Made by a program: the position numbers and the translations under genes
Origin: a virus
Taxonomy: Duplodnaviria; Caudoviricetes
IMG/VR virus record: IMGVR_UViG_3300001528_000360
Location: 32,001-96,000 of that record
Strand: one strand, 5' to 3'
DNA length: 64,000 bases
The notes under the pieces: model-generated
The model's database searches: none
What the model saw: only the letters and a program-made list of their open reading frames with translations
What the model was told of the DNA's origin: nothing
Shown here: in pieces, positions 11,260 to 54,394 of the stretch
Numbering within the stretch: position 1 is the stretch's first letter
Layout of the letters: each line of letters starts with the position of its first letter

Positions 11260-14245
11260 ATGGGAAAATCATTTATTTATGATGTAAATACAGCAAATAT
11301 TTCTTTTGTACAAACTGCAGTAGACTTAAAGAAATTAGGGATTAAAAATAATATGTTCTTTTTAAAATTGTATGATCCATCATTAAAAGGAGTAGATCCG
11401 CATTCTCCTTTCCTTACTAATGATCAGATCATTAGAATTATTAATGAGTGTATTATTAATCCCTGGTATTATTTAAGAGAAGTTGCAAGAATTCCTGACC
11501 AGGGTAATGTAAAAGGTGTTCCTTATCTTTTAAATAGAGCTAACTTAGCAGCAACATGGTGTTTTCTAAATGGTATTGATCATTATGAAGTTATTCCTAG
11601 ACAGATTGGTAAAACTGAATCCACCATTGCTATAATCACATGGGCTTTCTTATTTGGAACAACGAACTCAGAAATGATGTTCTTAAATATTACAGCCGAT
11701 CGTGCCTATGCTAACCTAGCTAAAGTAAAAGATCAGAGAGCATTATTACCCCCATATTTACAGTTTAAAGTTGCATTTGATGATGAAGGAAAAGAAATTA
11801 AAGCTACAGATAATACAAAATCTTTAAAGAATGCAACTAATGGAAATTCAATTGTAACAAAACCTTCTGCTCGTGGTATTGAATCTGCTGAAAGAATTGG
11901 TCGTGGTTCTTCTCAGGTTATTCAGTATTATGATGAGTTTGAGTTTATTTCTTATATCAAAACTATTATGGAAGCCGCGGGTCAATTGGCTCTCATGTTT
12001 TTACAACATGATAACTCCTTTAATTGCTGGAAACTCTCGTTAGGTTATCAGTACTTATAGTAACATAAGTGACAATCTGATAAATAGAGACAATCAGCAG
12101 CCAAGCCTTATATGTCTTTATATAAGGAAGGTTCAACGACTATCGAAAAGGTACTATAAGAGAAATACTTATAGGAGTAACTGAGTAGAGTACACTTAAA
12201 TGTGGAAATGGGGAGCATTTTATATATGGTAATAGTATATAAGATGAAGATATAGTCTATATTCTATAGAGATATAGAATAATAAAATGCCGGCTTATAA
12301 TACTGCTGCAGAGAATGCTAAAAGAAATAATGCTATACATTGTCGTTAAAGTAAGCGACATATACATAGTAATATGTATTGGAAACTCTCTTAATTGCTG
12401 GAAAGTCTTTTTATAAGATAATCAGCAGCCAAGGCTCGAAAGAGTAAGGTTCAACGACTATTAAGTACACTCAAGTGGGTGGAAATGGAGAGCTCCTTAT
12501 TATTTAAGGATGAAGATATAGTCTGGTCTCTATAGTGATATAGAGCAGTTCTTAAATGAACGATATAAGATTAACGATCTTATATGAACGAGAAATACGA
12601 TCTTTACAAGCACGCCAGGTGACTTAGATTCACAGCCTGGTGAAGATGCATTACAAATTGTTGAAAAAACTTGCAAGTGGTCAGAAAGTCTTTACGATAA
12701 ACCTATTGAAGATGTTCTTGACTATATTGCAATGAACTCTGAAAATAATATAGTATATATTGAATATCAATATCAGCAACTTGGTAAAGATGAAACTTGG
12801 TTTAATAAAGTTTGTGCATTATTGAATAATAATAAGCTTAAAATTCAACGAGAAATATTCTTAAGACGTATGCATGGTAGCTCTCAGTCTCCTTATGATC
12901 CTGAAGATCTTGATGCTATTCAGGATAAAAAAGGAACGATTAAAGAAGAGCTATTTATTAATAGAATTTTTAAGCTTGATATTTATGAAACTCTTGTAAA
13001 AAATAGAATTTACTTTATTGGTGTTGACGTTTCAAATGGTTATGGTTTGGATAATTCAGCAGTTACAATTTTTGATCCTTATGCACTTAAAGTTGTTGCA
13101 GAATTTAAATCTCCGCATATTGGTGTAAAGGACTTAATCAAGTTCTTATATATCCTAGTTAGAAAATATCTACCTAATTCTATCTTAGCAATTGAGCGAA
13201 ATGCAAATGGTGAAGCAGTGCTTGATCATTTAAGAGATAGTGAAATTAGAGGAAACTTATACTTTGATAATTCTAAAGAAATTAATGTTGATGATAAGTT
13301 AGACGGACAAGGTTTTATTCGTAAGGAAGCCGCACGTAGACAATTATATGGTAAACAAATGCCTTATAATATAGTAATATATTATACAGATTTCTTTAAT
13401 TGCTGGAAAGTCTTTTATAAGATAATCAGCAGCCAAGACTCTTATATAAGAGTAAGGTTCAACGACTAGTCTTTATGACGTACACTCAAGTGAGTGGAAA
13501 TAAGAAATATCCTATATAGGATAAAGATATAGTCTCATCTCTATAGTGATATAGAGCAGTTCATAAAAGAACGATATAAGAGTAACGATCTTATATGAAG
13601 ATATTGATTTGGACAGGCGGTAAATCTCGTGAGATTATGTTCTCTCTGTTGGATGAATATGTAAAAGAACACAAAGATGCTTTTGTTGGTCATTATGTTA
13701 TTGATGACTTGATGAAACTTGTTCGTGTTAATTCTAAGATACAAGCTGTAACAGGACAGCATGATGATAATATTATGTCGTTCTTAATGTGCTTGTATTT
13801 ATATTATTATGGTAATAATCTTGCTCGTTATGGTTTTACTAGAGGATCTCTTCCTGATGAAGAAGATCAGAATAAAGGAATGGATTATGGTGAAATCGTT
13901 AATGCTTTATCTGATACTGATAAAGAATTCTTTGGAATTGATAGTAATACACCGATTGATCAACCATTAAACATTGATATGATGTCAATGATAAATAATG
14001 GAAGAGGATTGATTTCTAAAGAGGAATTAAGAAGTGGAATTAATGATAATTCTATGAAAAAAATAAGACAACCTACAATGGATGCTTATTCAGCAAAGGT
14101 TTATAATGAAATGATGCAAGCTCAGAGAGAATCTGAAGCATTTAATAATAGAGTCGGATTCACTAATGGATATAGAAATATGGATGAAAGTGGAGAAGAT
14201 GACTATAGTTATAATTTAGATGTTTTTGATGAGCTAAATAGTTAA
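11260..14245 (+). CDS. Terminase large subunit, phiKZ-like; join(11260..11982,12290..12346,12600..13352,13607..14245), ~723 aa
   Basis: PRQIGKT Walker A, YYDEFEF Walker B, FIGVDVS nuclease motif, HDD. Splicing gives EAAG|PAY..HCR|IFTSTPGD and LYG|IWTGG, all in frame. Confidence 0.9.
11983..12289 (+). mobile_element. Group I intron 1 of terminase (307 nt, no ORF)
   Basis: P aattgctggaaa, Q aatcagcagcc, R gttcaacgacta, S aagatatagtc; exon ends in U and intron ends in G. Confidence 0.9.
12347..12599 (+). mobile_element. Group I intron 2 of terminase (253 nt)
   Basis: P/Q/R/S elements; P1 UGUCGU pairs with GCGACA; terminal G at 12599. Confidence 0.9.
13353..13606 (+). mobile_element. Group I intron 3 of terminase (254 nt)
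   Basis: P/Q/R/S elements; P10 CAAAU pairs with AUUUG; terminal G at 13606. Confidence 0.9.
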
Positions 14246-14249
14246 AAAA

Positions 14250-14280
14250 AGAGACTAGGGATAAAACCCTAGTCTCTTTC
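14250..14280. terminator. Bidirectional terminator
   Basis: agagactaggg / ccctagtctct hairpin flanked by A- and T-rich tracts. Confidence 0.75.
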
Positions 14281-14290
14281 TTATTTTTAT

Positions 14291-15535
14291 TTATGCAACG
14301 TGATCAATGGTATGCTCATAGTCCCTCATATAGATATAATAGGAACCATCATCTCGAAGTTCAATGACAAAATTATCTTCTGCCTGAGCATAATAATTAT
14401 CCTGTACAAACAGAGAAAACACTGCATAATTTCCATATATATGATAATCACCATGATAATAATTACCCTCATAATAAAACTCATTATCCGGAAGAGTAGT
14501 GAAACTATAAGTTGCAAGATAATCATCAGTAGGGACTGTATTGAAGTTACCCTCAAACTTAGAAGGATCAGTATCAGGAGTATTATTTGCCATATAAGTA
14601 TTCAAATACTTACAATACTTATTGATTTCATTAAAGTATGTAGAACTCAGCTTATTATAAATACGCTGATATTCATTGAGATTATTCTCATACTCAATGA
14701 CTTCATCACTGGTCAAAAGATCATATGCATCATAGCTCTGCTTGAATCCAGTATAAATGTTTTCAAATGCTCTAACTCCTTTTTCTCTAAGATAAGAATT
14801 GGAGTCAAGATATCCTTCCTGAACAATACTAGATGTATAGATTACAATTTCTTCAAATCCATTAATGGTGTCAATTTCAGCAAGATATGCATCAATAAAT
14901 CCACCTTCAGTAGTATTATGAATACGGGATTTGATATAAGGAGCTTCTACCATTTCATCACTTACAGAGATAATTCCATCAATACTATTGGACAGTTCAT
15001 AATAACGATCCAAGTCAGTATAATAAGTGTAGAGAGATTTAATGATATTGTAAGCTTTAACGGATTCATACTCAGCAGGGATATTAGCAAGAAGCTTATC
15101 CAGATATTCATACTTAGTGAGGATGTTTACAATATCATCAGAACTCCTGATATTTAAAACTTCATACTGATCCAGAGCAAGCTCTTTTACTACAGTCTTA
15201 TTAACTGCATCATAATAGTATTCCTTTACATCATTAGGAACCTTTTTAAAGAGCTTAGTCATCTGCTTGATATCATACTCTTCACAAGCAGTATCAATTT
15301 TCTCTTTGATCTTAGAATAATCCTTTTCATCAATAATGATGATTTCTTCTTCAGTATCTTCAATGATTGTTTCAGGTTCTTTATTTTCAGAATGACTAAC
15401 GACAGTATTGTTTGTATTATTAGATGCTTCGGTTGATTCGCCAGAATCAAAGAAACTGACAATGATACCTAAAAGCATCATGCCTCCCATAATGCAAAGG
15501 AAAATCTTCAAAAGTTTAGAGCCCTTCTTATTCAT
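14291..15535 (-). CDS. Membrane-anchored hypothetical protein
   Basis: Basic N-terminus followed by one TM helix; RBS AAGGA; 414 aa. Confidence 0.75.
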   Translation of the reverse strand: MNKKGSKLLKIFLCIMGGMMLLGIIVSFFDSGESTEASNNTNNTVVSHSENKEPETIIEDTEEEIIIIDEKDYSKIKEKIDTACEEYDIKQMTKLFKKVPNDVKEYYYDAVNKTVVKELALDQYEVLNIRSSDDIVNILTKYEYLDKLLANIPAEYESVKAYNIIKSLYTYYTDLDRYYELSNSIDGIISVSDEMVEAPYIKSRIHNTTEGGFIDAYLAEIDTINGFEEIVIYTSSIVQEGYLDSNSYLREKGVRAFENIYTGFKQSYDAYDLLTSDEVIEYENNLNEYQRIYNKLSSTYFNEINKYCKYLNTYMANNTPDTDPSKFEGNFNTVPTDDYLATYSFTTLPDNEFYYEGNYYHGDYHIYGNYAVFSLFVQDNYYAQAEDNFVIELRDDGSYYIYMRDYEHTIDHVA

Positions 15536-15610
15536 AATTGCAAATTCCTTTCTTTAAATTCAAAAAATTTTAAGGGGTAGGATGATCATTCATCCTACCC
15601 CTTATGTGTA

Positions 15611-16129
15611 TTACATCTTTACAGTATCTTCAGTCATATGTGCCTTAAATACATCATAAAACTCAAAGTATTTAAAATTTGTAATGCGATCACAAGTAAT
15701 TGCAAGCTGTTCACACATCTTAACAGCACTGTCCTTAATATTAATAATAAGATTATCCAGTGCACTCTGATATGCAATGTTATACTGATTATAGAGACGA
15801 CGACGAGCAATCTGCTTTCCACGTTCAACAGAAAACTCATTAGGATCATTAGGATCATACTTTGCAGTTGCTGTGAGTGTATCAGGAAGCATATACTTAC
15901 TACACGTTGTCATCGGGGACTCGATGATGGATGTAGTATCCGGGTTAAACTCACCATCCTCATCACGAAGCATCTCGACCATAACATCCTTGTCACTCAA
16001 GATCAAATTAAACTTCCGAAAACTCTTGAGCATTGTTTCAATTGCATCATACTTTACTCCGGAGACAGAAGCAGTTACAACCTTAGTCTCCTCATTCACC
16101 TGGTACTGAATCATGTTAGCAGTAAACAT
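15611..16129 (-). CDS. Hypothetical phage protein
   Basis: RBS AAGGAG; 172-aa ORF. Confidence 0.7.
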   Translation of the reverse strand: MFTANMIQYQVNEETKVVTASVSGVKYDAIETMLKSFRKFNLILSDKDVMVEMLRDEDGEFNPDTTSIIESPMTTCSKYMLPDTLTATAKYDPNDPNEFSVERGKQIARRRLYNQYNIAYQSALDNLIINIKDSAVKMCEQLAITCDRITNFKYFEFYDVFKAHMTEDTVKM

Positions 16130-16182
16130 AACAATTATACTCCTTTATTTTTTTAGAAAATTTGATATTTATTATAAGGGAA

Positions 16183-16932: not shown

Positions 16933-16934
16933 GT

Positions 16935-24911: not shown

Positions 24912-24998
24912 TGGTAGGGGATATCAGATTTGAACTGATACGGTATTTCTACCGCGGGATTTTAAGTCCCGTGTGGCTGCCTGTTACACCAATCCCCC
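24912..24998 (-). tRNA. tRNA-Leu, anticodon UAA
   Basis: Acceptor stem GGGGGAT/ATCCCCT, anticodon arm CGGGA-CTTAAAA-TCCCG, long variable arm, T-loop TTCAAAT, encoded CCA. Confidence 0.93.
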
Positions 24999-30662: not shown

Positions 30663-32816
30663 TTACATACTTACTCTATCTTTAATCTCAGCATTCTTAG
30701 CATCATTATATCTTGTCTTACCATGAACTCGTGTGTAGCCGAGATATCCGTTCATCCTATCGATTTTAGTGATCAGATCACTTCCACACTTAGGACAAAT
30801 ATCCATATCAAGCTCTTCATGTCCACAATTTTCACAATATGCTAAACTAAGATTAATACCTTCATAAAAACCCTTATCCATTGCTCTACGAACAAGAGTT
30901 TTAATAGCTTCTTTATTATAAGATACTGGATATCTGCAATACTGAATCTTACCACCATTGAACAGATTCCAGAATCTTTCCTCATAATCCTGTTTCTGAA
31001 TAGGAGTAATATTCTCCCAAACACCACAATGGAAACTATTACTAACATATGGTCTATCAGAAACTTTATTAACAATACCATACTTTTTTCTAAATTGCTC
31101 AACCTGTAATCCAGCAAGAGATTCTGCCGGTGTTCCGTACACTGCGAAGAGTATATGGTCTTCTTGTTTAAATTCATTAATCTTTTTATTAATATACTCC
31201 ATAACTTCAAGAGCAAAACTACCATCTTCAATAATAGATTTACCATTATAAAGTTCCTGAAGTTCATTAAGAGCAGTAATTCCAAAACTCATGGTCATAG
31301 GAGCAAGTAAAGGACGAATCTTATCATCAGGTTTCAAATGACCACCATAGAAACCACCCTCGCAGAATCCAAGAGGATTCGTAGAAGCTTTCTTTTCTCC
31401 AAGGAAATCATAAGTCTTTTTATGTAATTTTCTAATAAGTTCAAGATAATAATCAAGAACTTCATAGAAATCTTTACTTTCTTGTCTAGCCTTAGCTAAA
31501 ATCATCGGTAAGTGTAAAGAAATAGCACCAAGGTTGAAGCGTCCTTCAAATACAGGAACATCATTTTCATCAGCAGGTTTCATTCCACCACGTTCATACC
31601 AAGGACTAAGGGAAGCTCTGCATCCCATTAGACTAATAACCTTACCATACTTCTTATAAATAGAGGGAATATAACCATTTCCTGTAAGACTAAGAAAATC
31701 AGGATACATCGCTTTACTACTACAATCAATACCAAGATCAAATAAGTACTCATAAGGAGCACCTTTACCATGTAAAGATTCATCATATAAGAATGTAAGT
31801 TTAGGGAACAATACGGGCTTCTTATGACCAGGAGCACCCTGTCCACCTTTTCTTACTTTGAGAATAGATTCAGTAGCCATAATACCAAATCTAGATGTAT
31901 CAATACCAAAACTAGTAGCAATAAAAGGATAGTCTCCTCTACTACTACCAACAGTATTAAATCGATATTCCCAACATTGGAAACCTTGATCAAAATCTCT
32001 TCTAACCTTTTTCTCAGCATATTTATCAGCTAATTCAACTTTACTTTCATAATCATCACAAACATCTTTAATGATATCCATATACTCATTAAAATATTTA
32101 TAATAACTTTTTTCAGCATAAGGAGCAAGAACAGAATCAATACGACTCAGGGTAAACCCGCCATATTGACATGCTGCAGCACTCATCGTAATATCACTAA
32201 TAACATCAAATGCAACATCTAATGTTTTAGGTTCCGTATACCATACGTTACCCATTTCAAAACCGCCTTTAATAACATTAGCTATGTCAAAAAGACAACA
32301 ATTGATCGCGTCGAGACGTGCAGATCTATCGTGAATATAAATATATCCATCCTTCATAGCAGAAAGTTCTTCAGTATTTAAGAAGAATTTTTTGTATAAA
32401 GCACTATTTAATTCATTATAAATAAGACTTCTCTGTGTAGGTACAAGAGCAGAATCCGTGTTAGCATTATCTCTATCACCAATATATCTGATAGATTGAG
32501 ATTTTTTATAGACTTTGTCCAACATATGAACAAAGTCCTGTTTATAATTCCTATAATCACGATAACTCTTCGCAATTTTAGGATTAAGTGAATCCAAAGC
32601 AGATTCAACCAAATTATGCATTTCAGCAATTGTTACATACTCTTTATTAGGAAGATTATCAATAACGTGTGTACATACAAAATCATAATCTTTATTGGTT
32701 AAAGTAATCATTACACGTTCAGCAGATTTTGTAATAGCATTTTTAATCTTTTCTACATTAAAATCTTGCTCAGTTCCATCTTTCTTTAAAACTTTAATCA
32801 TTTTAAAATCCTCCAA
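30663..32816 (-). CDS. nrdD: Anaerobic (class III) ribonucleoside-triphosphate reductase
   Basis: N-terminal ATP cone, YIHD, MGCR, TPAESL, CENC..CPKC, RMNGYLG glycyl-radical motif. Confidence 0.95.
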   Translation of the reverse strand: MEDFKMIKVLKKDGTEQDFNVEKIKNAITKSAERVMITLTNKDYDFVCTHVIDNLPNKEYVTIAEMHNLVESALDSLNPKIAKSYRDYRNYKQDFVHMLDKVYKKSQSIRYIGDRDNANTDSALVPTQRSLIYNELNSALYKKFFLNTEELSAMKDGYIYIHDRSARLDAINCCLFDIANVIKGGFEMGNVWYTEPKTLDVAFDVISDITMSAAACQYGGFTLSRIDSVLAPYAEKSYYKYFNEYMDIIKDVCDDYESKVELADKYAEKKVRRDFDQGFQCWEYRFNTVGSSRGDYPFIATSFGIDTSRFGIMATESILKVRKGGQGAPGHKKPVLFPKLTFLYDESLHGKGAPYEYLFDLGIDCSSKAMYPDFLSLTGNGYIPSIYKKYGKVISLMGCRASLSPWYERGGMKPADENDVPVFEGRFNLGAISLHLPMILAKARQESKDFYEVLDYYLELIRKLHKKTYDFLGEKKASTNPLGFCEGGFYGGHLKPDDKIRPLLAPMTMSFGITALNELQELYNGKSIIEDGSFALEVMEYINKKINEFKQEDHILFAVYGTPAESLAGLQVEQFRKKYGIVNKVSDRPYVSNSFHCGVWENITPIQKQDYEERFWNLFNGGKIQYCRYPVSYNKEAIKTLVRRAMDKGFYEGINLSLAYCENCGHEELDMDICPKCGSDLITKIDRMNGYLGYTRVHGKTRYNDAKNAEIKDRVSM

Positions 32817-32922
32817 ATTCTAAAAAATTTTTTGGTTAAGATATTGTTTTTTAGGTTCTTAAAGATAACAAAAATATGTCAGATGTAAGGAAAAACCTTA
32901 CATCTGACAAAAAAAATATAAA

Positions 32923-35771
32923 TTAATAGCTTTCTGAATTTTCATCATTACTCTTAGTCTTTTCTTCAGCTTTTTCTTGAATAAGTTCAATTTTAGCATC
33001 TTTAACAGCTTCTTCAGCCTTAGCCCAATCAAGCATAGGTAAGTACTGTTTAGCCAATGTTTTAAAGACTTTATCTTTGATCTTATTAGAATCTTGTGTC
33101 TGATCAGCATTTTCACCAGTAATGATTTTAATCATATAACTAACAACCTGATCTGTATTATTAAGAACATCGCCCATATTCATAGTGTTAAGAGTCTTAG
33201 GCGGATTAAATGTAAATACAAATTTTTCTATAACCTCTTCAGGAATAGAAATATTAGAATGTTTTAAAATTAATTTATATAGATCAGTTATAGAGGGATT
33301 AAGATCCATCTGATATGAAATGACACGTCCAACAAACTTACTATTAGCCATAGTAAGAGTTTTAGCAAAGTCAACTTCATTAATATAATTCATAATAACC
33401 GATGGGACCAAATATCTTCATATAGGGTCGTTACTCCTATACCGTCCTAAAGAATAGGACTGCTCTAGCTTTCACTAGAAGTTGAGACTATATCTTCATC
33501 CTTAATAATAAGGAGCCTTCCATTTCCACTCACTTGAGTGTACTCTACTCACTTAATGAATCTCTATTGTATAAAGATCATTGTTTTCGATAGTCGTTGA
33601 ACCTTTCTTATATAAAGACATATAAGGCTTGGATGCTGATTGTCTACAAAAAATGTAGAGTTCCCAGCATTTAAGAAGGGTTTTAAATACACATTACTGT
33701 GTATTCTGGCATATTTTTACCAGTTCCAGAAATCATGTTATTACGAAGCATTTCCATGAGGTCAGTATTAAGAGGAATATCCTGTCCTTGCAGAATATCA
33801 AATTCAATACCACGCTCGCCACTACGTCCAACCAAAAATGTTCATATGAGTTCGTTAATCTCACACCGTTCAATAAAGAACTGCTCTATATTTCTATAGA
33901 GACCAGACTATATCTTCATCCTTTATTAAGGAGCTCTCCATTTCCATCCACTTGGATGTACTAATAGTCGTTGAACCTTACTCATTAAGAGTCTTGGCTG
34001 CTGATTATCTATTAAAGACTTTCCAGCAATTAAGAGAGTGCTTTTGTATATATCACTATATACAATCCCCATTGGACAGTTTAGGGATAAATATTTCCTT
34101 ATAAGCACCAATCTTTGAAATGATTGAGTTATAGTTTAAAAGGTCCATAAAGTTGATTTGCCTACCTTTCACGGAACGCGCAACTTCTTGAACCTTGTTT
34201 GTAATGTTAGCGTCCATACCAGAATTCTTTACATAGTAAATTCTCTGGTCATTTGATCTACTAACAATAGATACAAGTTTGAAAATAAGTAATGCTAAAT
34301 AAAGTTTAGCATAGAATAATGCCTTAGAAAGAACAGACTGACCATTACCCTCTGCATCTTCATTGACTTTAAATTCAATGATATAATCTGCAGGAATAAA
34401 CTGGAACTTAATCTGCTTTTCATAAAGATTATTATACAATAAAGCATTGAAAATTAAATCTTTAAATTTAGCATTATCATCAAGGAATTTCTTATCAAAA
34501 GATTTAATAATTTTATCAGTAACTTTTCCAAGGAACATAGTTTCTACATCCTCAGTATTTTGATACTGTTGACCAGAAGTCATATTAGTTACTTTGATCG
34601 TTGTAGAGAACGGGGACTTATTCACTTGGAAATCTGTGTCATGAATATAATAATAACCGATAGTAGTATCAAGAATCTTAACAGGAATAATTTTCTTAGG
34701 CTCAATATATTTGATATAGCAATCAGTTATATCATCAAACTTATTCTTACCCTTAGATTTTCCTTCCTTAATATCTAATGTACCATCCGTAGAAGGACCA
34801 TATTTCTTAATGGTTTCATCTCTCTTCTTACGGAAAGCATCATTATCAATTAATTCGTCAAGATTAACTCCTTCAATTAAAGGAATAGATACTACATCAT
34901 TAATAACTGAAATATTAGAAGTATACTCCTTAGTAATTTCAGCTAATTTACTAGGATTAATATCTTTTTCAATAGTTTTACCTTCTTTAGTGGAAGATTC
35001 TAAAGAAATTTTCATATTCTTATCATTAAACTCTTTATTTAATTCTTTAACAAAATCTTCATCAATACTTTCACTAATAGGACTTGTAGTAAATCTATTT
35101 TTAATTTTTCTGTCATATTGCTCTTGGAATAATTTGGAATACGGACAGCAATATACATAATATGTACCATAACGAAGTACATTCGGAATGATCATATTTT
35201 TAATTTTAATTAAGAGTTTTAATCTATTTTCAATTTCCCTAACAGTAGCAATATAATTTTCAGTATCTTGATCATTAGACATATTTTCAAAATTAAGTGT
35301 TCTTGATACTGTAGTGGAAATATCATCAGATGTTACGATAGCATCTCTTGTAGTCATGATTGCTTCTTCAAGTTCAAATAACTGAGAAGAAATCATTTCT
35401 AAGTCTTCATATAATAAACTCTTATTCTGATATCTTTGCTGGAAAAATTCAAATAAACCAGCAGTATCATTTTCAAAGATATCATTTAATGTTTTAGCAT
35501 TAGTAGTATCTTTATTATCGAAGTCATTGAATAACTTAACAAGAAATGTTGACATATCATCTGAAGTAATACTCTTTGTATTAGTTAATTCAGCATTGAT
35601 AATTTTATCAACATTTTGATTTAATCTCTGAAGTTCTACACTATGTTGATCACTAATACCAGTAATTGTAGTAGAAAGCTTTGTAATAGATTGATTAAAA
35701 GCATCATTCAATTCTATTAAATCTTTCTTAGTTTTTTCAATATTATTAGCTTTCTCTTTACTTGTTGCCAT
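32923..35771 (-). CDS. Portal protein; complement(join(32923..33408,33719..33832,34083..35771)), ~762 aa
   Basis: YGTYYV, GQSVL..ALFYAKLY, R..QRIYYV. Splicing restores IFIP|VGRSGERGIEFDILQG and SGTG|VPS; late promoter at 35819-35830. Confidence 0.75.
33409..33718 (-). mobile_element. Group I intron 2 of portal (310 nt)
   Basis: P/Q/R/S on the minus strand; P1 CUGGU pairs with GCCAG; terminal G. Confidence 0.88.
33833..34082 (-). mobile_element. Group I intron 1 of portal (250 nt)
   Basis: P1 AUCCCU/GGGGAU, P10 GUCCAAU/GUUGGAC, P/Q/R/S elements. Confidence 0.9.
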
Positions 35772-35894
35772 ATATGTATCACAACCTTTCATAGTTGGAC
35801 TTTATACATTTTAAGTCTTATTAAAATGTTTCGTAGCTTATTTTAAACAAAAAAATAGAGACTATAGGTTTTCCCTATAGTCTCTCTTTATTAT

Positions 35895-36560
35895 TTACAT
35901 ATATAAGCAAGTATACTTATGATAACTAATACAAGAACCTCGTTCAATCTTAACACCAAGATGGAAAAGCTTCTTGTCATCAGGATTATCAAAGAAGAAT
36001 AAGTACATTACATGGGACTTCTTTAATCCAGGAGCAATCTCCTTAGTAATCCTAGTTCTATACTTATCTTCAGCAATATTAATAAACTCATTGCCAACAA
36101 GCTTTTCAACAGAGTCCTTTGTCAGCATCATAGAATTTTCCATATAGGAACCATTCATATCAGAATTAATAAATGCCTTAGCATTATTCAATTCTTCAAT
36201 AGTATTAATTCCGGAATGGAATTCACCAATGAGAATATCTTCTTCAAGATTTTCTCCACTAAGATATACTTTATGATCTTCATCTACTTTAATATACTGA
36301 AGATTCTTCTTATTCTTACTTACTGCAGTAAAAATATTCTGAGGAATCAACTTCAATAATGTCTCAGCATTATTATCAATAACAGGGAAATCAAAATACC
36401 AAATAAACTCAGTAATTCCAAAATGCTTTCCCTTATTAAGCTTACTATCACCAAAGATATAACCATCCTTAGTAAGATAATACTCATTATAAATATTTTT
36501 CAGTTCTTGGTTTAAATCATGTAGTTTATTAATTTCTCCCTTTTTAAGTTCGTACTTCAT
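35895..36560 (-). CDS. Hypothetical protein following PolB-N
   Basis: AAGGAG RBS; 221 aa. Confidence 0.75.
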   Translation of the reverse strand: MKYELKKGEINKLHDLNQELKNIYNEYYLTKDGYIFGDSKLNKGKHFGITEFIWYFDFPVIDNNAETLLKLIPQNIFTAVSKNKKNLQYIKVDEDHKVYLSGENLEEDILIGEFHSGINTIEELNNAKAFINSDMNGSYMENSMMLTKDSVEKLVGNEFINIAEDKYRTRITKEIAPGLKKSHVMYLFFFDNPDDKKLFHLGVKIERGSCISYHKYTCLYM

Positions 36561-36572
36561 AACATTTTCTCC

Positions 36573-39135
36573 TTAATCCTTATTTATATTAATATTGACC
36601 TGGTCAATAAAATATTTAATAAAATTAGAAATAGAATGTCTTCTACGAGGTTTAATTTTAAATCTCTCCTTCATCAACTCATTTACTTCATTAACATCAG
36701 GAAGATTAAACCATTTAGTACCCATAGATAAAATATCTCCGGTAAGATAATTATCTAAGAAATCTTTTCCTGAATCATAACCAATATTAAATTCTTTATC
36801 TTCTTCTTCAGCATCTTCATCATAGACAATATCTACAATTTCATCACTAACAAAGAAATGATCATATCTATCTTCAGTAAATTCTGGAATAATTATTTTA
36901 GAAATCATTGTATGTCGTTCAATATTAAATGCAATAATAATATGTGGGTACATCGCACTAAAATCCATATCAATAACATTACTAAATGCATACATTGAAC
37001 GTTTTCCAAATAATTTAATTCCAGTATGTGAATTCAAAAGTGGGTTACCAACTCATTGATGTTCAGATAGATCCGTTACTTCTATCCCGTCTATTAAGAC
37101 TGCTTTATATCTCTATAAAGATCAGACTATATCTTCATCTTTATTTAAGATGCTCTCCATTTCTACTCACTTGAGTATACAAATTAGTCGTTGAACCTTA
37201 CTCTTTCGAGTCTTGGCTGCTGATTATCTCAAAGAGACTTTCCAGCAATTAAGAGAGTTTTTAATATCATATTACTATAATATGCACCTGTTATTTAAGC
37301 GCTCCAGTAAACCCTTCACTTTTAGTAGTACTAAAGATATTTACATTATTACCTAAAATATTTCCTTGCAAAAAGTATTCATAATAAGCACGTGATTTTA
37401 ACATCATTTAATGTTCATATAAGATCGTTAATCTCATACCGTTCATTTAAGAACTGCTCTATATTAACTATAGAGATCAGACTATATCATCATCTTATTT
37501 AAGATGCTCTCTATTTCCATTCACTTGAATGTACTAATAGTCGTTGAACCTTCCTTATTATAAGGCTTGGCTGCTGATTATCTTATAAGAGACTTTCCAG
37601 CAATTAAGAGAGTTTTTAATATCATATATCACTATATGTATGGTCAGTTATTTTAACCGTCTGTTTGAACACTTTATCTACATCACAAATATTTGCAGAT
37701 GATCTAAGATAAAGATTATCAATATCATGTGCTTTTCTTTCTATGCCCATTTGAAGAAGAACGTCTTTTATATTATATTTCACAAACTTACGATAATTAA
37801 CATATGGTAAAGTTTTGATATTTGCTTCATCTGAGTAATCGAGTTTCTTGTCACCCAGCTCAGCTTCACCAATGGCATTTAAGCTATTAGATCGTAATTC
37901 ACTTTGACCTTTACGAGTTGCTGCATAAAGGATCATTTGGTCTATATATTTAGTATATGAAGATACTTTAAAGAAACTTCCTTTATTTGCAATTTGGAAA
38001 TTTCTTTCATCTTCATGTAATTTACACATTTTATATTTGAAATCTTTATGACAAATAATTTCAAAAGGATCTAAATCCAAAACATTCATTCTGTTAAGAA
38101 TATATGGAAGGTCGACATTATGTTCATATAAGATCGTTACTCTTATATCGTTCATTTAAGAACTGCTCTATATCACTATAAAGATCAGACTATATCTTCA
38201 ACTTATTTAAGTTGCTCTCCATTTCCATTCACTTGAATGTACAATTAGTCGTTGAACCTTACTCTTTAAGAGTCTTGGCTGCTGATTATCTTATAAAGAC
38301 TTTCCAGCAATTAAGAGAGTTTTATGTGAGCTCATTTTAACCCACAGCCATTCCATATCAAGCAATAATCACGTTTGAGAGTATTAATTAATTTAAACAT
38401 ATCTGTTATAAGTTTTCTTTCATCATCATACATATAAATATAATATGAAAGAACACCATATGACTCATCAAATGCTTCATGCAACTCATTTGTAAAATTA
38501 TCAATATCATTTACAAACTCATTAATCAAAGGATTATCAGGATTATTTAATAAGAAAGTGTATACTGAGTTTGTAATATCATCTACAATTGTTACTGCAT
38601 TAATTGGACAAGAGCCATCTCGTACAAATCCTACAGCATCAATTGTATCAACCTCTATATCTAGATATGTCTTTGTAAGAGGTTTTAATTTTTCATTTTC
38701 ATATTCTAACATCCATTGAGTTCTATAAAATACATCAATAGGAATATCAGAACCAAAGACATATGGATAAGAATGAATCTTGTTAATATCAGAATATCTT
38801 CCACTTTCGATTAATCGCTTTAATTCATTTACATACTCAGGACCAGCCTGTTCTGCAATATACCAAGGAAGTTTCTTATATTCACAAGTATGTTTATCAC
38901 ACTTATCAATTTCCATGAAATTTTTATTATATTTAAAATTTCGATACTCATCTTTCACAAAATAAATATCAATAGTAGGATTTTCAATACTCTTAACATG
39001 TTTCTCCTCACTATCAATATCTTTGTATATAACATCTAAACAATCAATTCTATCATTTTCTTTTCTAGGGGGATGATAAAGAATATCAAGTAACATGATA
39101 TTTTCTTTATCAATATTTTCTTTCAAAAATTTCAT
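36573..39135 (-). CDS. Split family-B DNA polymerase, N-terminal subunit (3'-5' exonuclease plus motif A); complement(join(36573..37053,37298..37404,37655..38115,38340..39135)), ~614 aa
   Basis: ExoI YLDIEVD, ExoII WNGCGFDLPY rebuilt across intron 1, ExoIII YNIKD, GALVGNP across intron 3, motif A DMDFSAMYP. Confidence 0.88.
37054..37297 (-). mobile_element. Group I intron 3 of PolB-N (244 nt)
   Basis: P/Q/R/S; P1 GCGCU/GGUGC; terminal G. Confidence 0.88.
37405..37654 (-). mobile_element. Group I intron 2 of PolB-N (250 nt)
   Basis: P/Q/R/S; splicing gives KQTV|MLKSRAY in frame. Confidence 0.85.
38116..38339 (-). mobile_element. Group I intron 1 of PolB-N (224 nt)
   Basis: P1 UGUGGGU/GCUCACA; P/Q/R/S; splits the Phe codon of ExoII. 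Confidence 0.9.
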
Positions 39136-39253
39136 TGCAAATTCCTCCTCTTTAAGAATTGTTAATCTGCATATACAACTATAATATATATTTCAAAATG
39201 ATGTTAAAAAATATCACTAGATGGAATTTAACCATCTAGTGATATTTATTTAA

Positions 39254-39724
39254 TTACTTATCGGACTTATTGAACTCATCCTTGGAACGCTCAGCAGCCT
39301 TCTTAATAAGAGTAGCACTGGACTTATTAGCAGAAGCAGAAACAGCTTTCTTAGCACGACGAGCGGCCTCAGCACCATACTTCTTATAAAGATAATCCTC
39401 AAGATAACGCTCCATCTTCCAAACAGTCAGAAGCTTCTTAAACTTAGGATCATTCTTCTCCTTGGCAATGGTGAAAGTAGCCATCTTGGTAGCACGAGAA
39501 AGCTTAGCCTTCTTATCGAGACGAACAATCGTCTTCTCCATAAGAATATTATTGCTAACAGCATCGTCAACCTCAGTCTTATTCTCAAGGAACATAGACT
39601 TTTCCTCGGGAGTGAACTCATCATTGATAAAGGCTTCCATGATGTACTGAGTAGCCTCAGTGCTGATCACGTCCTCGGTAACATTCTCAATATCGCCCTT
39701 TTTGTTAAATAACATATGGGACAC
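39254..39724 (-). CDS. Small late (probably virion) protein
   Basis: High codon bias; late promoter at 39747-39758; own terminator at ~39214-39244. Confidence 0.7.
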   Translation of the reverse strand: MSHMLFNKKGDIENVTEDVISTEATQYIMEAFINDEFTPEEKSMFLENKTEVDDAVSNNILMEKTIVRLDKKAKLSRATKMATFTIAKEKNDPKFKKLLTVWKMERYLEDYLYKKYGAEAARRAKKAVSASANKSSATLIKKAAERSKDEFNKSDK

Positions 39725-39864
39725 ATCCTTTCTTATAAAAGTATTTTATAGAATTGTTTTATTTATAAATAAAATTGTATTAGAGAATGATTTATCGTAT
39801 TGAAAAGATATCTTTGATTTAACATATACAGTAAAAACTAATTATACTCAAAAATCTTTTGAAG

Positions 39865-39874
39865 TATATATTAT
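39865..39874 (+). promoter_or_regulatory. Putative early promoter TATATATTAT (representative). Also at 44109, 51215 on +, and 2409-2418, 18119-18128, 25051-25060, 29518-29527, 39181-39190, 60553-60562, 62914-62923 on -
   Basis: 10-mer at operon starts of replication and accessory genes, correctly oriented; resembles the phiKZ early motif TATATTAC. Confidence 0.65.
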
Positions 39875-39889
39875 ATTATTGTATAGAAA

Positions 39890-42088
39890 ATGAAAGACGG
39901 TGATTATATGATTAATTCAGATAGTTACATCTTTTTAAAAAGATGGAAGAAAGAAAATCGTAAAATTCTTCAAAGGTTATATCCTGAAATTTCTAAGAAA
40001 GATATTAATTCTTTCTTAGATGATATTATTAATGAAAGAATCAAGAATCCAAAGGTGATTCTTGATAATAATTATATTGGAAAACAGATTAATACGAATC
40101 TGTTAGATACAACAAATTGGATTCATAATACAGATCCAATATGTGCTGGTCATGGTGTTTTATTTAAGAACCAGCATCAGGTTATAAATCCATTGGCTAT
40201 AATGATTCAAAAATTCTTAACTTCTCGTAAGAAGTTTAAAGGACAGCTTAAATTTATTAAAGATAAGACATCATATGAATATCAAACATTCGATAGAAAA
40301 CAGTTATCAGAAAAGATTTGTGCTAACTCAATATATGGTACGTTTGGTAATGTGGTTTCGTTTCTGTTTAATATGTATACAGCTCCCTCTGTAACTGGTT
40401 CTGGTCAGTCATTAATCAGTACAACAGAACAGGCATTTGAATCATTCTTAGCAAATAACTCTTTATTTAATAATATTAATGAGTGTTTTACATTTATGAA
40501 TAATGTATTGAATGAAGAGTATACCGTTGATTCTACATTCTTAAAAGATGTAGAAATTGAGAAAGTATTTACTAGATTAGTAAATACTTTTTATAATTAT
40601 CAAGATTCTTATACTGATATTTTAACATCATTCTTAGAAACTCTTAGTCAAGATGAACTTAATAAGATTTATTATAAGAATAATATTTATGAGTTCTCTA
40701 TGCATCAAGAGATTCTAAGTTTATTAACTAATATTGTTAGAAATACAGAGGAATTTAAAGATCCGAATAAAGTTCCTGAATCTAGTAAAGAGTATCTAGA
40801 GGAACTTTGGAAATATTATAGTCAGTTTGTATTATATAATCATTCTCCGATTAATCGTATTCAGAGATTAAAGAACGATAGACGTAAAGTAGTTCTTACA
40901 ATTGATACAGACTCAAACTTCTTAAATCTCAATCCTTGGGTTGAGTTTATGTTTAATAATATTATTAATAATGATTATACTTGTGAAGGACGAGACGAAG
41001 ATTCTCTTAAATTTATTGCAGTTAATACTATGGCATTTTGTATTACTAATATGATGAAAGAAGTTCTTTGGAGATATACAAAAGATGCAAATATTCCAGA
41101 GGATTATAGATCTTTCATTAATATTAAGAATGAGTTCCTTATGTCAAGAGTTGTATTAGCTAGTAAAAAGAAAAGATATTTCAGCTCCATTCGTTTAAGA
41201 GAGGGAGATGAAATCTGGCCGGAGAAATTAGATATCAAGGGTTTGAATATAGGCTCATGGTTCCTTAATTGCTGGAAAATCTATATAGATAATCAGCAGC
41301 CAAGACTCTTATATAAGAGTAAGGTTCAACGACTAGTCACAATGACGTACATTCAAGTGAATGGAAATGGGAAACCATCAATTATATATTGATGAAGATA
41401 TAGTCTCATCTCTATGGAGACATAGAGCAGTTCTTAAAAAAGAACGGCGAGAAAGTAACGAATTCTCGTGAAGAATTTGCATGATTTCATGAAATCTACG
41501 GCCACAAAAGAAACTCAAGACAAGTATAAGGATATTATTAAGAAAAGAATTATTAATACAAAAGATATTGATGTAGTAAAAATCTTAAATGATATTGAAG
41601 ATTTTGAAAATGAGATATTACAATCACTTCATAATGGTGAAAAAAAATATTTAATTCCTAACTCTGTAAAAGAGTTAGAAGCATATAGTGAACCGTTAAG
41701 AATGCAAGGTGTACGTGCAGTTATTGCATGGAATTATATATATCCTGATATGGAGATTCAACTTCCTACTAAAGTTGATTTGGTAAAAGTTAATTTAACA
41801 GAAGAAAAGAATTTAATGAAATTGAAAAATGATTATCCTGATGTATATAAAATAGTTAATGAAAAGATTTTAAATAATCCAGATAAGAGAATTTCTGATA
41901 AAGGTTTAGCAATTATTGCAATTCCTAGAAATATTGATAAGATTCCTGAATGGATTATACCATTTATTGATTATGATACAATTGCATATAACGTATTAAA
42001 TAAATTTTATCCTGTATTAGAATCTTTAGGCTTAGATACTATTAAGACCTCTAAGAAAGAGTATTTCAGTAACATTTTAAGTATTTAA
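39890..42088 (+). CDS. Split family-B DNA polymerase, C-terminal subunit (motifs B, C, thumb); join(39890..41242,41480..42088)
   Basis: KICANSIYG (motif B), TIDTDS (motif C), KKRY, DIKG|HDFMKS across the intron. Confidence 0.9.
41243..41479 (+). mobile_element. Group I intron of PolB-C (237 nt)
   Basis: P/Q/R/S elements; U|..G boundaries restore the frame. Confidence 0.88.
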
Positions 42089-42092
42089 AAAT

Positions 42093-42752
42093 ATGGAGGA
42101 GAAAATTATGGCAATTATTCAGGTAAATTTGGAAGTTAATGATGAGCAGTTTAAGCAGTTAGTTGTTGGAAATATTAATGATCTTCCTAAAGATAAGATG
42201 GAAGAACTCTTATTGAAAGCTGTTGAAGCCGCTTTACTGTATGATAGACAAACATCATACAGTAATGGTAATATTCTTGTCAAAAAAGAAGATCCAAATA
42301 ATCCATATTATTCAAATCTTGTTCCTACTGAACTTATGAAACAGGTAATGAAAAATATTGACACTGAAAAATATTTTGGTCCCATTGCTGAAGAAATTGC
42401 TACTTATATGAGAGATAACTATAAAGATATTATTCAAAATTATATGATTGAATCTATTACTAATTTATTATTTACTGATAATAATAAATACGATATTCAA
42501 AGAGCAATCCAAAATGCTATTAGTAATATGAATAGATATAAATGAGGTGAATTTATGGCTCAATGGTGTGATAAATGTATCAATTGTAATAAACATGGTG
42601 CATTAGTTAATTACGGTATCGTATTTGCATGTGATGAACCTGAATGTAATTATGAGCCTATTCCTACTAGCTATACAACAACTTCTACATCAACAAATTG
42701 TGATGGAGCAGCAGTTCTTACAACAGCAAGTACATTACCAAATGTTAAATAA
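42093..42752 (+). CDS. Two hypothetical proteins (42093..42545; 42555..42752, Cys-rich)
   Basis: ORF track and RBSs. Confidence 0.6.
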
Positions 42753-46387: not shown

Positions 46388-46389
46388 GA

Positions 46390-50348: not shown

Positions 50349-50420
50349 GTAATAGAAAAATACACAGGAGTTGAAAAACTCCTGTGTATTAACTATACCT
50401 TATAAAGAAAGGAGGACACT

Positions 50421-51206
50421 ATGTTTATTCCACAAACATTATCAGAGTATATTGATAACCCTATGGGTAAAGGTTCTACTGCAATTGCAAATAGAAATCT
50501 TATTAAATCTGATTTAGATAGCAGATATAATAAGCTTCTGGAAAAGCATAAAGATTTTAAACATACTATGTATTATGATGTAAATACATTTTATGCTCAT
50601 ATTTTAATTCCTAGTGAATCTGAAAGAAATAACACATATGATGTAGTTATTCAATTTGTACCTTTAGAAAAAGAAGTAATTCAAGATGTTAATCTTAATA
50701 GATATTGCATTAAGGTATTTAGTAATTGTCCTAGTTTTACTTATACTTATGCATATGTCTATAATGACTATGATATGATGATTGATTTTTTAAGAAATAA
50801 ATATCGTAATCAGGTTTTACAAGATAATCCTATTGTCAAGAATCCTGGTGAAATTATTAACTTTGAGAAATCAATTTATTTTGCAGCTAAGTATATTCAA
50901 TCAAATAAAACTTTGATGAATAAATTTACGTTAGCATCTATTGCTAAACGTATGAATAAAGTAGAATTTGCAAAAACGATTAGAAATACAGATACTATTG
51001 AATTAGAAATTAAAAAAGAAAATAATCGTTTGAAGAATGAAAAAGAAGAGAATTTAAAAAAGCTTAGAGCAAAACTTGAAAAACCTAACAATGGAAGACC
51101 TGTTCATAAAATAGCAGGAACTAAAAAAGAAAAAGAAAATAAGAATCACTATATTACTCCTCATCCAAAGATTAAGGGGAAACCTAAGATTAAAAGAACA
51201 AAATAA
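50421..51206 (+). CDS. Hypothetical protein with basic C-terminal tail
   Basis: AGGAGG RBS; 261 aa. Confidence 0.7.
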   Translation: MFIPQTLSEYIDNPMGKGSTAIANRNLIKSDLDSRYNKLLEKHKDFKHTMYYDVNTFYAHILIPSESERNNTYDVVIQFVPLEKEVIQDVNLNRYCIKVFSNCPSFTYTYAYVYNDYDMMIDFLRNKYRNQVLQDNPIVKNPGEIINFEKSIYFAAKYIQSNKTLMNKFTLASIAKRMNKVEFAKTIRNTDTIELEIKKENNRLKNEKEENLKKLRAKLEKPNNGRPVHKIAGTKKEKENKNHYITPHPKIKGKPKIKRTK

Positions 51207-51242
51207 TTTTTAGGTATATATTATATATATGATAAACAAAAA

Positions 51243-54200
51243 ATGAGGAGGGACGTGTTTGTGAGCAACAACAAAGAATTCATCCGTATAGATGAATGGA
51301 GCCCGACAAAACGTGATAACATAATCCTATATGATGGAAAACTTATTGTTATTCCTTTTGATAAGATATTCAATCGCCAGAATAATGAGGCTTTGAATAA
51401 TTTTATTATTAAGAAGGAATCTTATGTAAAAAAGTTAGATCACATCACACACTACATCAATTATTTTATTAAATATTATGATGATGATAACGAGTTACTG
51501 TTATCATATTTAAAGTTAAAATTCTTAATTGACAATAAGTCAAATAATATTCCTATTAGTACTTTCATTAAATTAGTATATAATATTCTTCTTACTGATT
51601 CTATGATTGAAAAAATTAATAAGTTAGTAGAAGATAATTATTATATTGATTTATCTCCTGAAGATACTAATAAGAAGTATAATGAAACACTTGAGTTTAC
51701 AGAAGAACATGCAAAAGTTTTAATGTCAATTTCAATGGCTATGAAACTTATGGTTCCTGTAATGTTTCATTATCTTAATTCTTATGGTCTTATCAAAGAA
51801 AGATCATATATATTCAGATTCTATGAAGGTCTTTTTGATACATTCGGAAATAATATTGATATCTATAATAAGTTATGGGTATCTATCTATGCAAAAGTAA
51901 ATGTCAACTATGTGAGAAATAGCGTTATCTGGGAACAACGCGAGATTAACTAAAAATAGTCTCGATCATATAGCAATATATGATTAGAAACCTCTTTAAT
52001 TGCTGGGAAATCTAAACAAGTAATGTTGTAGACAATCAGCAGCCAAGACTTATTTATATAAGTAAGGTTCAACGACTATCGAAAGCATATCTATAAAAGA
52101 AATTTTATAGAGAAGAAGTGAGTAGAGTACACATATTTATTATATGTGGAAATGGGAGGCTCTTTATATATGGTTATAGTGTATAAAGATGAAGATATAG
52201 TCTATTCCTTATAGAAATATAAGGTATCAAAGATTTGGTGTTAACGCTTTAACTCATATGACTGAATTACTTAAAGATAAAATTATTTCTGAAACTATTT
52301 TCAAATATGAATTCAATAAGAACATTGTGTCGTTAACTAATTAAGCGACATATGTATAGTAATATACATTAGCAACTCTCTTAATTGCTGGGAAATCTAA
52401 ACAAGTAATGTTGTAGATAATCAGCAGCCAAATAATTATACAAATCAAATTTACAAAAAATAAAAAAAAATAATATTGAATGGAGGTGAAAACATGAGTA
52501 AAGAAATATGGACAAAAATATATTATAATAATGAAAAGTTACACTATAGTGTTAGCGATTGTGGACAAATCAGAAATGATAAGACAGGTAATATTTTAGC
52601 ACAATCATCAGATGATAATAATTATAAATTTATAACATTAGAATTAAATGATGGAACTCGTAAAATGTTTAGAGTTCATAGATTAGTTGCTAGTATGTTT
52701 ATGCCTGTTCGTTGTTCTGATGAAATAGAAGTTAATCATAAAGATGGCAATACTTCAAATAATAATATTGAAAATTTAGAATGGTGTACTCATGCTGAAA
52801 ATATGAAACATGCTAATGCTAATAACTTAATTAAGCGTAATACAGGTGACGATCATCCAGGATGTAAATATTCTGATAAATTTATTGATGATGTAGTATC
52901 ATTAATGAGACAAGGTTTAAATAATAGGGAAATTTGTGATAGATTAAATATTAAATCAAATCATAAATTAATAGCATTATTTACTAGTATTAGAAAAGGT
53001 AGAGGAAGATTAAAATCTACTAAAAACTTTGATGATATTCCTTCACATTCATCTAAGAAAAAATGGGATGAAAAATTTGTTAAAGATATATGCAAATTAT
53101 TATCAAAAGGATATTCTACATTAGAAGTTGCAAGTAGATTAGATTTAACTGGTAAATCATCTACTGAAGTTAAAGCATTAATTAGAGACATCAAAAAAGG
53201 TAAACGATTTAAAAGTATTGGAATTACATATGATTTGTATAATTAAAGGTTCAACGACTATCGAAAGGATACTATAAGAGAAATACTTATAGGAGTAACC
53301 GAGTAGAGTACACTTCAAGTGAAGTGGAAATGGAGAGCATCTTATATATGGTAACAGTATATAAGATGAAGATATAGTCTAATCTCTATAGTAATATAGA
53401 GCAGTTCTATTTTTAGAACGATATAAGAGTAACGATCTTATATAAATACTAATGTTAATTATGTTGTTATTGATAAGCAGTTAAGATTCTTTTTGGTTGA
53501 GCCATACAAGCTCAATAGAATCGAGTTATCTGCACATCGAGATGCAAGCGGATTGTCTGGGTAAAGTTTAGCTCAGTATAAACTCTCTTAAATGCTGGAA
53601 AGTCTTTTATAAGATGATCAGCAGCCAAGACTTATTTATATAAGTAAGGTTCAACGACTAGGTGAAAACCGTACATCCAAGTGGATGGAAATGGAGAGCA
53701 TCTTAAATAAGATGAAGATATAGTCTGGTCTCTATAGAAATATAGAGCAGTTCTTAAATGAACGGTATAGAAAGTAACGAGTCTATACGAACATAACATA
53801 GACAAATTAGAAATGAACGCTGCAAAAATCGATGAAAGCACAGTAATTTTATCTAACATCAATATTAAAAAGACACTTAAAAGAATCAAGAATAAAATGC
53901 ATATAGATATTTCTAAAGAGGAAATTGAATATTATAAGCATAATTTGAATATTACTAAATTCCAATCTCAATTAGTATTCTATTATTATGCAAAGTATTT
54001 TAATGGATATAGAGACCTGAATTTGTTAAATAGAACTCAATATCTGAAATTGTTAATCATGTTAAAGAAGAGATTACAGTTTCAATCTTATGTATATCTT
54101 CCGCAGATTATATCCTCTAATGTTGAAAGTAAGCTGAATAGTAGAACGATAAGAAATGATAAGTTCTTAACTAAGATTCAAAGTTCGGCTATTTATCAAC

Positions 54201-54394
54201 ATATTATTCAGGATAAATATTCTGCATTGAATGATATTGGAAAAGAAGATTTAATAATTAATATGCTGTCTACATTGTTGAATACATCATTCACATTTGT
54301 AGATTATGATAATAAAGAAGCATTAGGAAAAACAATAGAAGTAAATCAGGATGTTATTTCTGATGAATTTTTGAATTTCTTAAATCAGTTATAA
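51243..54394 (+). CDS. ~500-aa helical protein, possibly the non-virion RNAP promoter-specificity subunit; join(51243..51946,52233..52333,53455..53562,53799..54394)
   Basis: Removing three introns gives one continuous frame (EI-FGVN, IVS-FNYV, LSG-LDKLEM). The functional call rests only on size, early promoter and context. Confidence 0.55.
51947..52232 (+). mobile_element. Group I intron 1 of the 51243 gene (286 nt)
   Basis: P1 CGAGAU/GUCUCG; P/Q/R/S; terminal G. Confidence 0.88.
52334..53454 (+). mobile_element. Group I intron 2 of the 51243 gene (1121 nt) carrying a homing endonuclease
   Basis: P1 UGUCGU/GCGACA, P10 UAAUUAA/UUAAUUA; ORF inserted between Q and R. Confidence 0.9.
52494..53246 (+). 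CDS. Intron-encoded HNH homing endonuclease (NUMOD4 + HNH, I-HmuI-like)
   Basis: YSVSDCGQIRN, VHRLVA, VNHKDGNTSNNNIENLEWCTHAEN; GGAGGTG RBS. Confidence 0.9.
   Translation: MSKEIWTKIYYNNEKLHYSVSDCGQIRNDKTGNILAQSSDDNNYKFITLELNDGTRKMFRVHRLVASMFMPVRCSDEIEVNHKDGNTSNNNIENLEWCTHAENMKHANANNLIKRNTGDDHPGCKYSDKFIDDVVSLMRQGLNNREICDRLNIKSNHKLIALFTSIRKGRGRLKSTKNFDDIPSHSSKKKWDEKFVKDICKLLSKGYSTLEVASRLDLTGKSSTEVKALIRDIKKGKRFKSIGITYDLYN
53563..53798 (+). mobile_element. Group I intron 3 of the 51243 gene (236 nt; 3' end at 53798 A or 53801 G)
   Basis: P1 CUGGGU/GCUCAG; P/Q/R/S; 3' splice site ambiguous. Confidence 0.85.

Follow-up and report, generated by a model that had tools for sequence, protein, structure and literature searches.

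How far can the core genes of one phage be interrupted by copies of the same element, and how would such a load accumulate? The question is raised by the IMG/VR record IMGVR_UViG_3300001528_000360, a contig of 152,429 bp. The contig has a G+C content of 29.7%. Its bases 32001-96000 (64,000 nt; hereafter the window) carry twelve copies of what is very probably a single family of self-splicing group I introns, located in the genes for the large terminase (TerL, three copies), a putative portal protein (two), the N-terminal and C-terminal parts of a family B DNA polymerase (PolB-N, three, and PolB-C, one) and a predicted RNA polymerase subunit (gene 51243, three). The completeness of the contig is estimated at 62% by CheckV, and the full genome is therefore expected to reach about 245 kb. 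Among GenBank phages, megablast found no close DNA relative; its one match was 52 nt of intron core in Bacillus phage Internexus. The contig proteins are distantly related to those of the Bacillus jumbo phages AR9, PBS1 and BpSp, and IMG/VR contains about 50 uncultured contigs related to it, which reach 264 kb in length. Judged by its proteins, the source is an uncultured, AT-rich, AR9/PBS1-like jumbo phage. Five related contigs are referred to below as G001 to G005; G005, of 218 kb, is a complete genome that has repeats at its termini. In G002, G004 and G005, each of the five host genes of the window is uninterrupted.

One intron family in five genes

The copies were counted with a covariance model and with a motif scan. 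The Rfam group I model RF00028 (gathering score 50) gave 10 full copies in the window, at 75.6-98.9 bits (E 2e-17 to 2e-24), and a match of 39.1 bits to one 3' half (53339-53399), corresponding to RNAP-2, the copy that bears an open reading frame (ORF). The twelfth copy, PolC-1, was matched at window 41181-41427 with 84.3 bits when the whole contig was searched with the same model (contig 73181-73427). The window cmscan missed PolC-1 at both thresholds, PolN-1 and PolN-2 were not picked up in the contig search, and a complete intron count is obtained from neither of the two by itself. The R element, AAGGTTCAACGACTA, occurs at exactly 12 places in the window, each accompanied by P, Q and S in the proper order. 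Eleven copies are ORF-less and measure 224-310 nt, and the remaining copy of 1121 nt has an HNH endonuclease gene in P6. Together, the introns sum to 3,972 nt, which corresponds to 6.2% of the window; of the stretch covered by the five genes, they make up 29% (Table 1). Two size classes can be distinguished among the ORF-less copies, a short one of 224-254 nt and a long one of 286-310 nt, the latter with extra P5 and P7.x stems; the 3' tail (P9.1/P9.2) is missing from two of the three long copies (TerL-1 and RNAP-1). By blastn, 72-75% identity is found to introns of PBS1 and of T4-like, Staphylococcus and phiKZ-like phages, over about 80% of an intron in the last three groups. Altogether, the twelve copies are very probably genuine group I introns of one family, of the IA-like classical phage type. 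The original prediction, made from the letters of the window, had listed twelve related copies with this division among the genes, eleven of them ORF-less and 224-310 nt long; its count and its lengths are borne out by the model matches, the R-element sites and the junction-defined ends, and the Infernal check that it proposed upholds the group I identity.

Table 1. Interrupted genes, their introns and the intron-borne reading frame, in window coordinates (gene lengths are those of the spliced products)
Feature	Position	Strand	Length	RF00028 (bits)	Details
Large terminase	11260-11982, 12290-12346, 12600-13352, 13607-14245	+	723 aa		four exons
TerL-1	11983-12289	+	307 nt	87.6	long type, extra stems, no P9.1/P9.2 tail
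TerL-2	12347-12599	+	253 nt	89.5	short type; P1 6 bp
TerL-3	13353-13606	+	254 nt	86.5	short type; P10 5 bp
Putative portal	35792-34083, 33832-33719, 33408-32923 (span 32923-35792)	-	769 aa		three exons
Port-1	33833-34082	-	250 nt	98.9	P1 6 bp; P10 8 bp
Port-2	33409-33718	-	310 nt	77.3	long type; P1 5 bp
PolB N-terminal (exonuclease)	39135-38340, 38115-37655, 37404-37298, 37053-36573	-	614 aa		four exons
PolN-1	38116-38339	-	224 nt	92	without P2; P1 7 bp
PolN-2	37405-37654	-	250 nt	86.5	
PolN-3	37054-37297	-	244 nt	94.6	P1 5 bp
PolB C-terminal (polymerase)	39890-41242, 41480-42088	+	653 aa		two exons
PolC-1	41243-41479	+	237 nt	84.3	without P2; P, Q, R and S present
Predicted gp226 homologue (gene 51243)	51243-51946, 52233-52333, 53455-53562, 53799-54394	+	502 aa		four exons
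RNAP-1	51947-52232	+	286 nt	75.6	long type, no P9.1/P9.2 tail; P1 6 bp
RNAP-2	52334-53454	+	1121 nt		HNH ORF in P6 loop; P1 8 bp; P10 7 bp
Predicted HNH homing endonuclease	52476-53246	+	256 aa		HNH_3 E 1.5e-12; NUMOD4 E 1.3e-07; phrog_59 E 1.2e-40
RNAP-3	53563-53798	+	236 nt	98.9	ends in A

Fold and covariation

The fold was derived from an alignment of the 11 ORF-less window copies. P1 and P8 were aligned poorly by MAFFT and were excluded from the pair count; P1 was scored directly for each intron instead. The alignment supports P3, P4, P5, P6, P7, a hairpin between P7 and P3', P9, P9.1 and P9.2. Over 52 pairs, 99.1% of cells are paired, compared with 31-46% when the partners are slid, and 25 of these pairs have changed on both sides in a compensatory manner, a value as high being obtained in none of 500 shuffles. 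P4 and P7 are invariant across the aligned copies. The hairpin between P7 and P3' (helix 7, columns 240-258) covaries and is found in all 11 copies, and the three long copies have a second insert at the same place. Extra hairpins between P7 and the 3' strand of P3 (P7.1/P7.2) are a mark of subgroup IA. In addition, in 23 of the 23 tailed copies of the contig, the N of GTCT-N, the base next to the 3' strand of P7, and the N' of GAA-N' in the 3' tail change together (G-C, C-G or A-T), a pattern that can be read as a P9.0-like contact.

Splice sites and spliced products

Junctions were placed by tblastn with uninterrupted homologues, followed by splicing of the whole genes and alignment of the spliced products. 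The exons are colinear with the homologues, with consecutive residue numbers, and are 50-75% identical to them, without frameshift or stop. All 12 junctions are indel-free, and the five spliced frames are open over their full lengths. Five junctions fall within codons (phase 1 and phase 2), and four internal exons encode just 19 to 38 aa each. At every intron the upstream exon ends in T (U), paired with a guide G that lies 3-12 nt inside the intron, with 2-7 more exon-complementary bases after it. This P1 pairing averages 5.3 contiguous bp with the intron's own exon versus 3.1 bp with the exons of other introns, and P10 pairings are listed for three copies (Table 1). The last intron base is G in 11 of the 12, the exception being RNAP-3.

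From these features, each intron would fold into a P3-P9 core, and its internal guide would pair with the final 3-8 nt of the upstream exon, forming a U.G wobble at the splice site. A guanosine would then be used for the cut at the 5' splice site, and the exons would be joined after the terminal intron G to give a continuous reading frame. A guide matched to the local exon in each copy, removal between U and G with one exception, and restored frames and catalytic motifs had all been predicted. The pairing lengths and the terminal bases agree with this, intron-less homologues align without gaps across all 12 junctions, and at least one catalytic motif, ExoII of PolB, is restored. The exons upstream of TerL-2 and RNAP-2 both end in TGTCGT and face guides GCGACA. 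This shared target was considered as evidence of reverse splicing and rejected, a chance coincidence being likely among 351 site pairs.

The 3' end of RNAP-3 was considered separately. The conserved stretch GLSG-LDKLEMN is reproduced only by the junction 53562/53799. If the intron is ended at the G of 53801, a conserved residue is deleted (GLSG-Y-KLEMN), and an end at 53789 introduces a stop codon, as does moving the two sites by 3 nt. At this position, G003 carries an intron of 1 kb with an identical P1, which ends ...GAACATAAACG ahead of TG, with a terminal G; the terminal A of RNAP-3 thus appears to be derived. By group I chemistry, a terminal A is expected to impair exon ligation or to shift it to the next G.

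The interrupted genes

The terminase matches phrog_32359 (E 6.4e-50) and is colinear and gapless by tblastn against the intron-less TerL of three related loci. TerL-1 (residues 241/242) is located about 17 residues after a putative Walker B motif, YYDE. Its site is occupied in many relatives by introns of 0.9-1.1 kb, and the copy groups in the intron tree with same-site introns of three of them (support 88/90). Because the 1000-nt intron at this site in one relative (L002) carries a NUMOD4/HNH ORF, the 307-nt TerL-1 has most likely lost its endonuclease gene. TerL-2 (260/261) sits two residues ahead of the TSTP motif, and its site is empty in 50 of 50 related TerL loci, as is that of TerL-3 (514/515). 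TerL-3 is 89% identical to a copy in a different gene of the contig.

The product of the putative portal gene matches phrog_3004 (virion protein) and is gapless against uninterrupted frames of 746 aa and 769 aa in two related loci. No sequence match was found in Pfam, in a PDB sequence search or by tblastn against GenBank phages. An AlphaFold model was made for one uninterrupted homologue and is of only moderate quality (pLDDT 61); its only significant Foldseek match is the phiKZ portal 9xpe_M (E 6.7e-09, TM 0.27-0.31), the next-ranked entries being the portals of lambda, N4 and T4. The portal label is thus moderately supported by a predicted structure. In the protein database, the entry for this gene of the contig is 578 aa long, compared with about 750 aa in intact homologues.

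The family B polymerase is encoded by two separate divergent genes, an exonuclease part on the minus strand (36573-39135) and a polymerase part on the plus strand (39890-42088). This division is independent of the introns, because intron-free relatives show the same split. PolB-N matches phrog_3011 and is gapless against three related loci, and its spliced product contains ExoI (LDIE), ExoII (NGCGFD), ExoIII (YNIKD) and motif A (DFSAMYP). PolN-1 divides ExoII within a codon, as NGCG/FD. No interruption of PolB-N is seen in G001, and an intron at about the PolN-2 site is also present in G003. PolB-C matches phrog_2927 (E 4.1e-61) and the Pfam families divDNApol and DNA_pol_B, is gapless against three further loci and is uninterrupted in all five of G001 to G005.

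Gene 51243 matches phrog_25005, is gapless against three related loci and is matched by tblastn to AR9 g226 ('non-virion RNAP subunit') at 27% identity. The order of its neighbors (GroEL, a hypothetical gene, g226, primase) is that of AR9. Sequence and gene order identify it as homologous to AR9 gp226, a subunit of the non-virion RNA polymerase. The RNAP-1 site is empty in 10 of 10 related loci. In RNAP-2, the elements P, Q, R and S lie at 52383, 52420, 53246 and 53368, and the predicted HNH ORF is placed between Q and R, that is, in P6.

Distribution in the contig and its relatives

The motif scan found 27 cores in the contig, with 23 RF00028 matches, all 27 within 13 genes that are each contiguous in the intron-free G005. 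Outside the window, the 13 refined junction spans obey the same rule of U before the intron and G at its end; two spans hold two unseparated introns each. Two gaps outside the window (113144-114294 and 98132-98713) contain two back-to-back cores each, probably separated by a micro-exon too short for tblastn. Of the six HNH_3 matches of the contig, every one falls within the P6 loop of an intron; a free-standing HNH_3 gene was not found there. RF00028 matches number 14 in G001, 14 in G003, five in G002, two in G004, none in G005 and 18 in AR9 (251 kb).

Three of the 12 window sites are common to relatives: TerL-1 in many of them, PolN-2 and RNAP-3 in G003. The other nine are empty in G001 to G005 and in all related loci examined. 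In a tree of 48 intron cores, the genome label needs 6 changes, compared with a mean of 15.8 after shuffling, and none of 500 shuffles gave a value as low. Supported sister groups unite copies from different genes of the contig, for example TerL-3 with the copy at 121785 and PolC-1 (97/91). Because nine sites are empty in relatives and the copies cluster by genome, spread of the intron family within this phage lineage is likely on sequence grounds. A few old sites would be shared with relatives, whose introns carry an HNH homing endonuclease, and most of the short ORF-less copies would be recent gains within the lineage at sites that are empty in relatives. Such gains might occur by reverse splicing into guide-matching sites or by transposition assisted by an endonuclease or by recombination. 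The original prediction had proposed proliferation within the genome and an intron phylogeny against other phages. Empty sites and clustering favor spread within the lineage, and the phylogeny gives the clustering but is weakly resolved and places TerL-1 with introns of other phages; proliferation inside one genome stays unproven, as gene conversion could give the same clustering.

Origin of the copies

The copies could also be decayed relics or a dispersed non-splicing repeat, the genes being expressed as fragments that assemble or being pseudogenes in a defective or mis-assembled genome. The loss of the terminal G in RNAP-3 would agree with decay, as would P1 helices of just 3-4 contiguous bp in some copies, and the true division of PolB into two genes in this lineage indicates that split proteins are tolerated. 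However, compensatory changes that maintain every helix are unexpected of dead copies, and fragments assembling as proteins are hard to reconcile with junctions inside codons and inside the ExoII motif, or with the 19-38 aa exons, which have no independent start. The conserved exons, free of frameshift and stop, and the essential nature of the genes affected (terminase, portal, polymerase, RNA polymerase) also speak against pseudogenes, and decay or a non-splicing repeat is very improbable. For real introns, gain site by site through homing from co-infecting relatives could be hypothesized, with gene conversion accounting for similarity within the genome. It would explain the three sites common to relatives and the 14 matches of the same family in each of G001 and G003, and a hint of an occupied Port-1 site elsewhere comes from portal homologues that are truncated to 560-630 aa in the protein database; the limited resolution of the intron tree is compatible with it too. 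Homing does not readily explain nine sites empty in all relatives examined, nor the sister pairs that link copies from different genes of the contig, and 11 of the 12 copies have no endonuclease that could drive it, with none of the HNH_3 type encoded separately. As an account of the whole set, homing is therefore considered rather unlikely. It is proposed only tentatively that endonuclease-free introns are being actively transposed to ectopic sites, in the simplest case by reverse splicing into transcripts at matches to the 4-8 nt guide, with subsequent fixation in DNA; in this specific form, the proposal is itself somewhat doubtful.

Several observations weigh against the broader view of functional introns that have spread within the lineage. 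A search for sequencing runs containing bases 32900-42100 of the window listed none, splicing of the copies being predicted from sequence, and contiguous P1 pairing is limited to 3-4 bp in TerL-1, TerL-3, PolN-2 and PolC-1. RNAP-3 may splice poorly or use the next G (53801), or its terminal A may be an assembly or population variant. In the intron tree, 27 of 44 inner branches have support below 80, and gene conversion rather than transposition could produce the clustering within genomes. Even if the copies did spread within the lineage, either reverse splicing or DNA-level transposition could have been the route.

Comparison with other intron-rich phages

Classical phage introns of subgroup IA2 are found in td, nrdB and nrdD of T4, in orf142 of Staphylococcus phage Twort (three introns) and in SPO1's gene for DNA polymerase. 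Several introns in one gene are thus also seen in Twort. These introns share the consensus P, Q, R and S core with the window copies, but the phages concerned carry from one to about five per genome, compared with 27 here, mostly without endonuclease genes. The closest cultured lineage is AR9/PBS1 (Takahashivirus), as also reflected in the gp226 homologue and its neighbors. In AR9, as many as six RF00028 matches are clustered within about 3 kb, and in PBS1 similarity to a window intron is seen at 11 places, with 74.5% identity at the best of them. The proteins are just distantly related to those of AR9, and intron density here is about 2.5 times higher (27 cores in 152 kb versus 18 RF00028 matches in 251 kb).

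Jug phages of Bacteroides/Phocaeicola, with genomes of 360-402 kb, have many short, ORF-less introns, averaging about 206 nt in length and 18.5 per genome; terL is cut into two or three pieces, nrdD and polymerase genes are also affected, and for 37 of 76 predicted introns metatranscriptome reads confirmed splicing (PMC12880540). They belong to a different lineage, the phage described here having an AR9-type RNA polymerase, and have about one intron per 20 kb versus one per 5.6 kb here. The anaerobic ribonucleotide reductase gene nrdD, the gene most often fragmented in Jug phages, is intact in the window (30663-32816, minus strand; 717 aa, NRDD E 2.7e-110, with an ATP-cone). In crAss-like Zeta and Delta phages, introns and inteins have been described at an 'unprecedented' density, with up to 14 introns per genome of 145-192 kb, core genes such as that of the major capsid protein (MCP) in five pieces, and alternative genetic codes; these introns were found via endonuclease domains (PMC7886860). 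The crAss-like phages are of a different order, and most copies here are ORF-less, with neither inteins nor recoding seen in the five genes. The earlier statement that phages usually have a few introns per genome understates what was already known, given 18 matches in AR9, a mean of 18.5 in Jug phages (PMC12880540) and up to 14 in crAss-like Zeta phages (PMC7886860). The contig is a denser member of a known phenomenon, with about one intron per 5.6 kb compared with about 14-20 kb in AR9, Jug and crAss-like Zeta phages; only its density is exceptional, and it does not represent a new kind of element.

Other features of the window

The sole tRNA of the window is a tRNA-Leu (anticodon TAA; 24912-24998, minus strand). 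A coding repeat of 120 nt (58051-58371; 2.7 copies, 82% matches) is located in ORF 57481-58467 and encodes an acidic, D/E/P-rich stretch. An intergenic array with a 36-bp period is found at 59264-59485, where each row from Tandem Repeats Finder comprises about 2-3 units with 71-80% matches, and near the window end, an AT-rich intergenic region contains a 194-bp tandem duplication (63309-63721; 2.1 copies, 86% matches).

Implications

Replication and packaging had been predicted to depend on splicing, which agrees with the genes affected but is incomplete: gene 51243 is predicted to encode an RNA polymerase subunit, and transcription would therefore depend on splicing as well. Packaging, replication and middle/late transcription would each hinge on between two and four splicing events taking place correctly. 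In annotation, gene callers report five essential genes of the window, and 13 of the contig, as separate or truncated proteins. Among related jumbo phages, intron numbers range from 0 to at least 27, with the contig at an extreme of this scale, and the clade is suited to studying the spread of endonuclease-free group I introns and the cost of their load. RNAP-3, if its end is correctly placed, would be a natural example of a group I intron whose terminal nucleotide is altered or which uses an alternative 3' site. If ectopic transposition is the source of the copies, the contig would exceed every phage seen so far in intron density, with 27 introns in 152 kb and 13 core genes, and would provide a natural test system for the long-debated reverse-splicing route.

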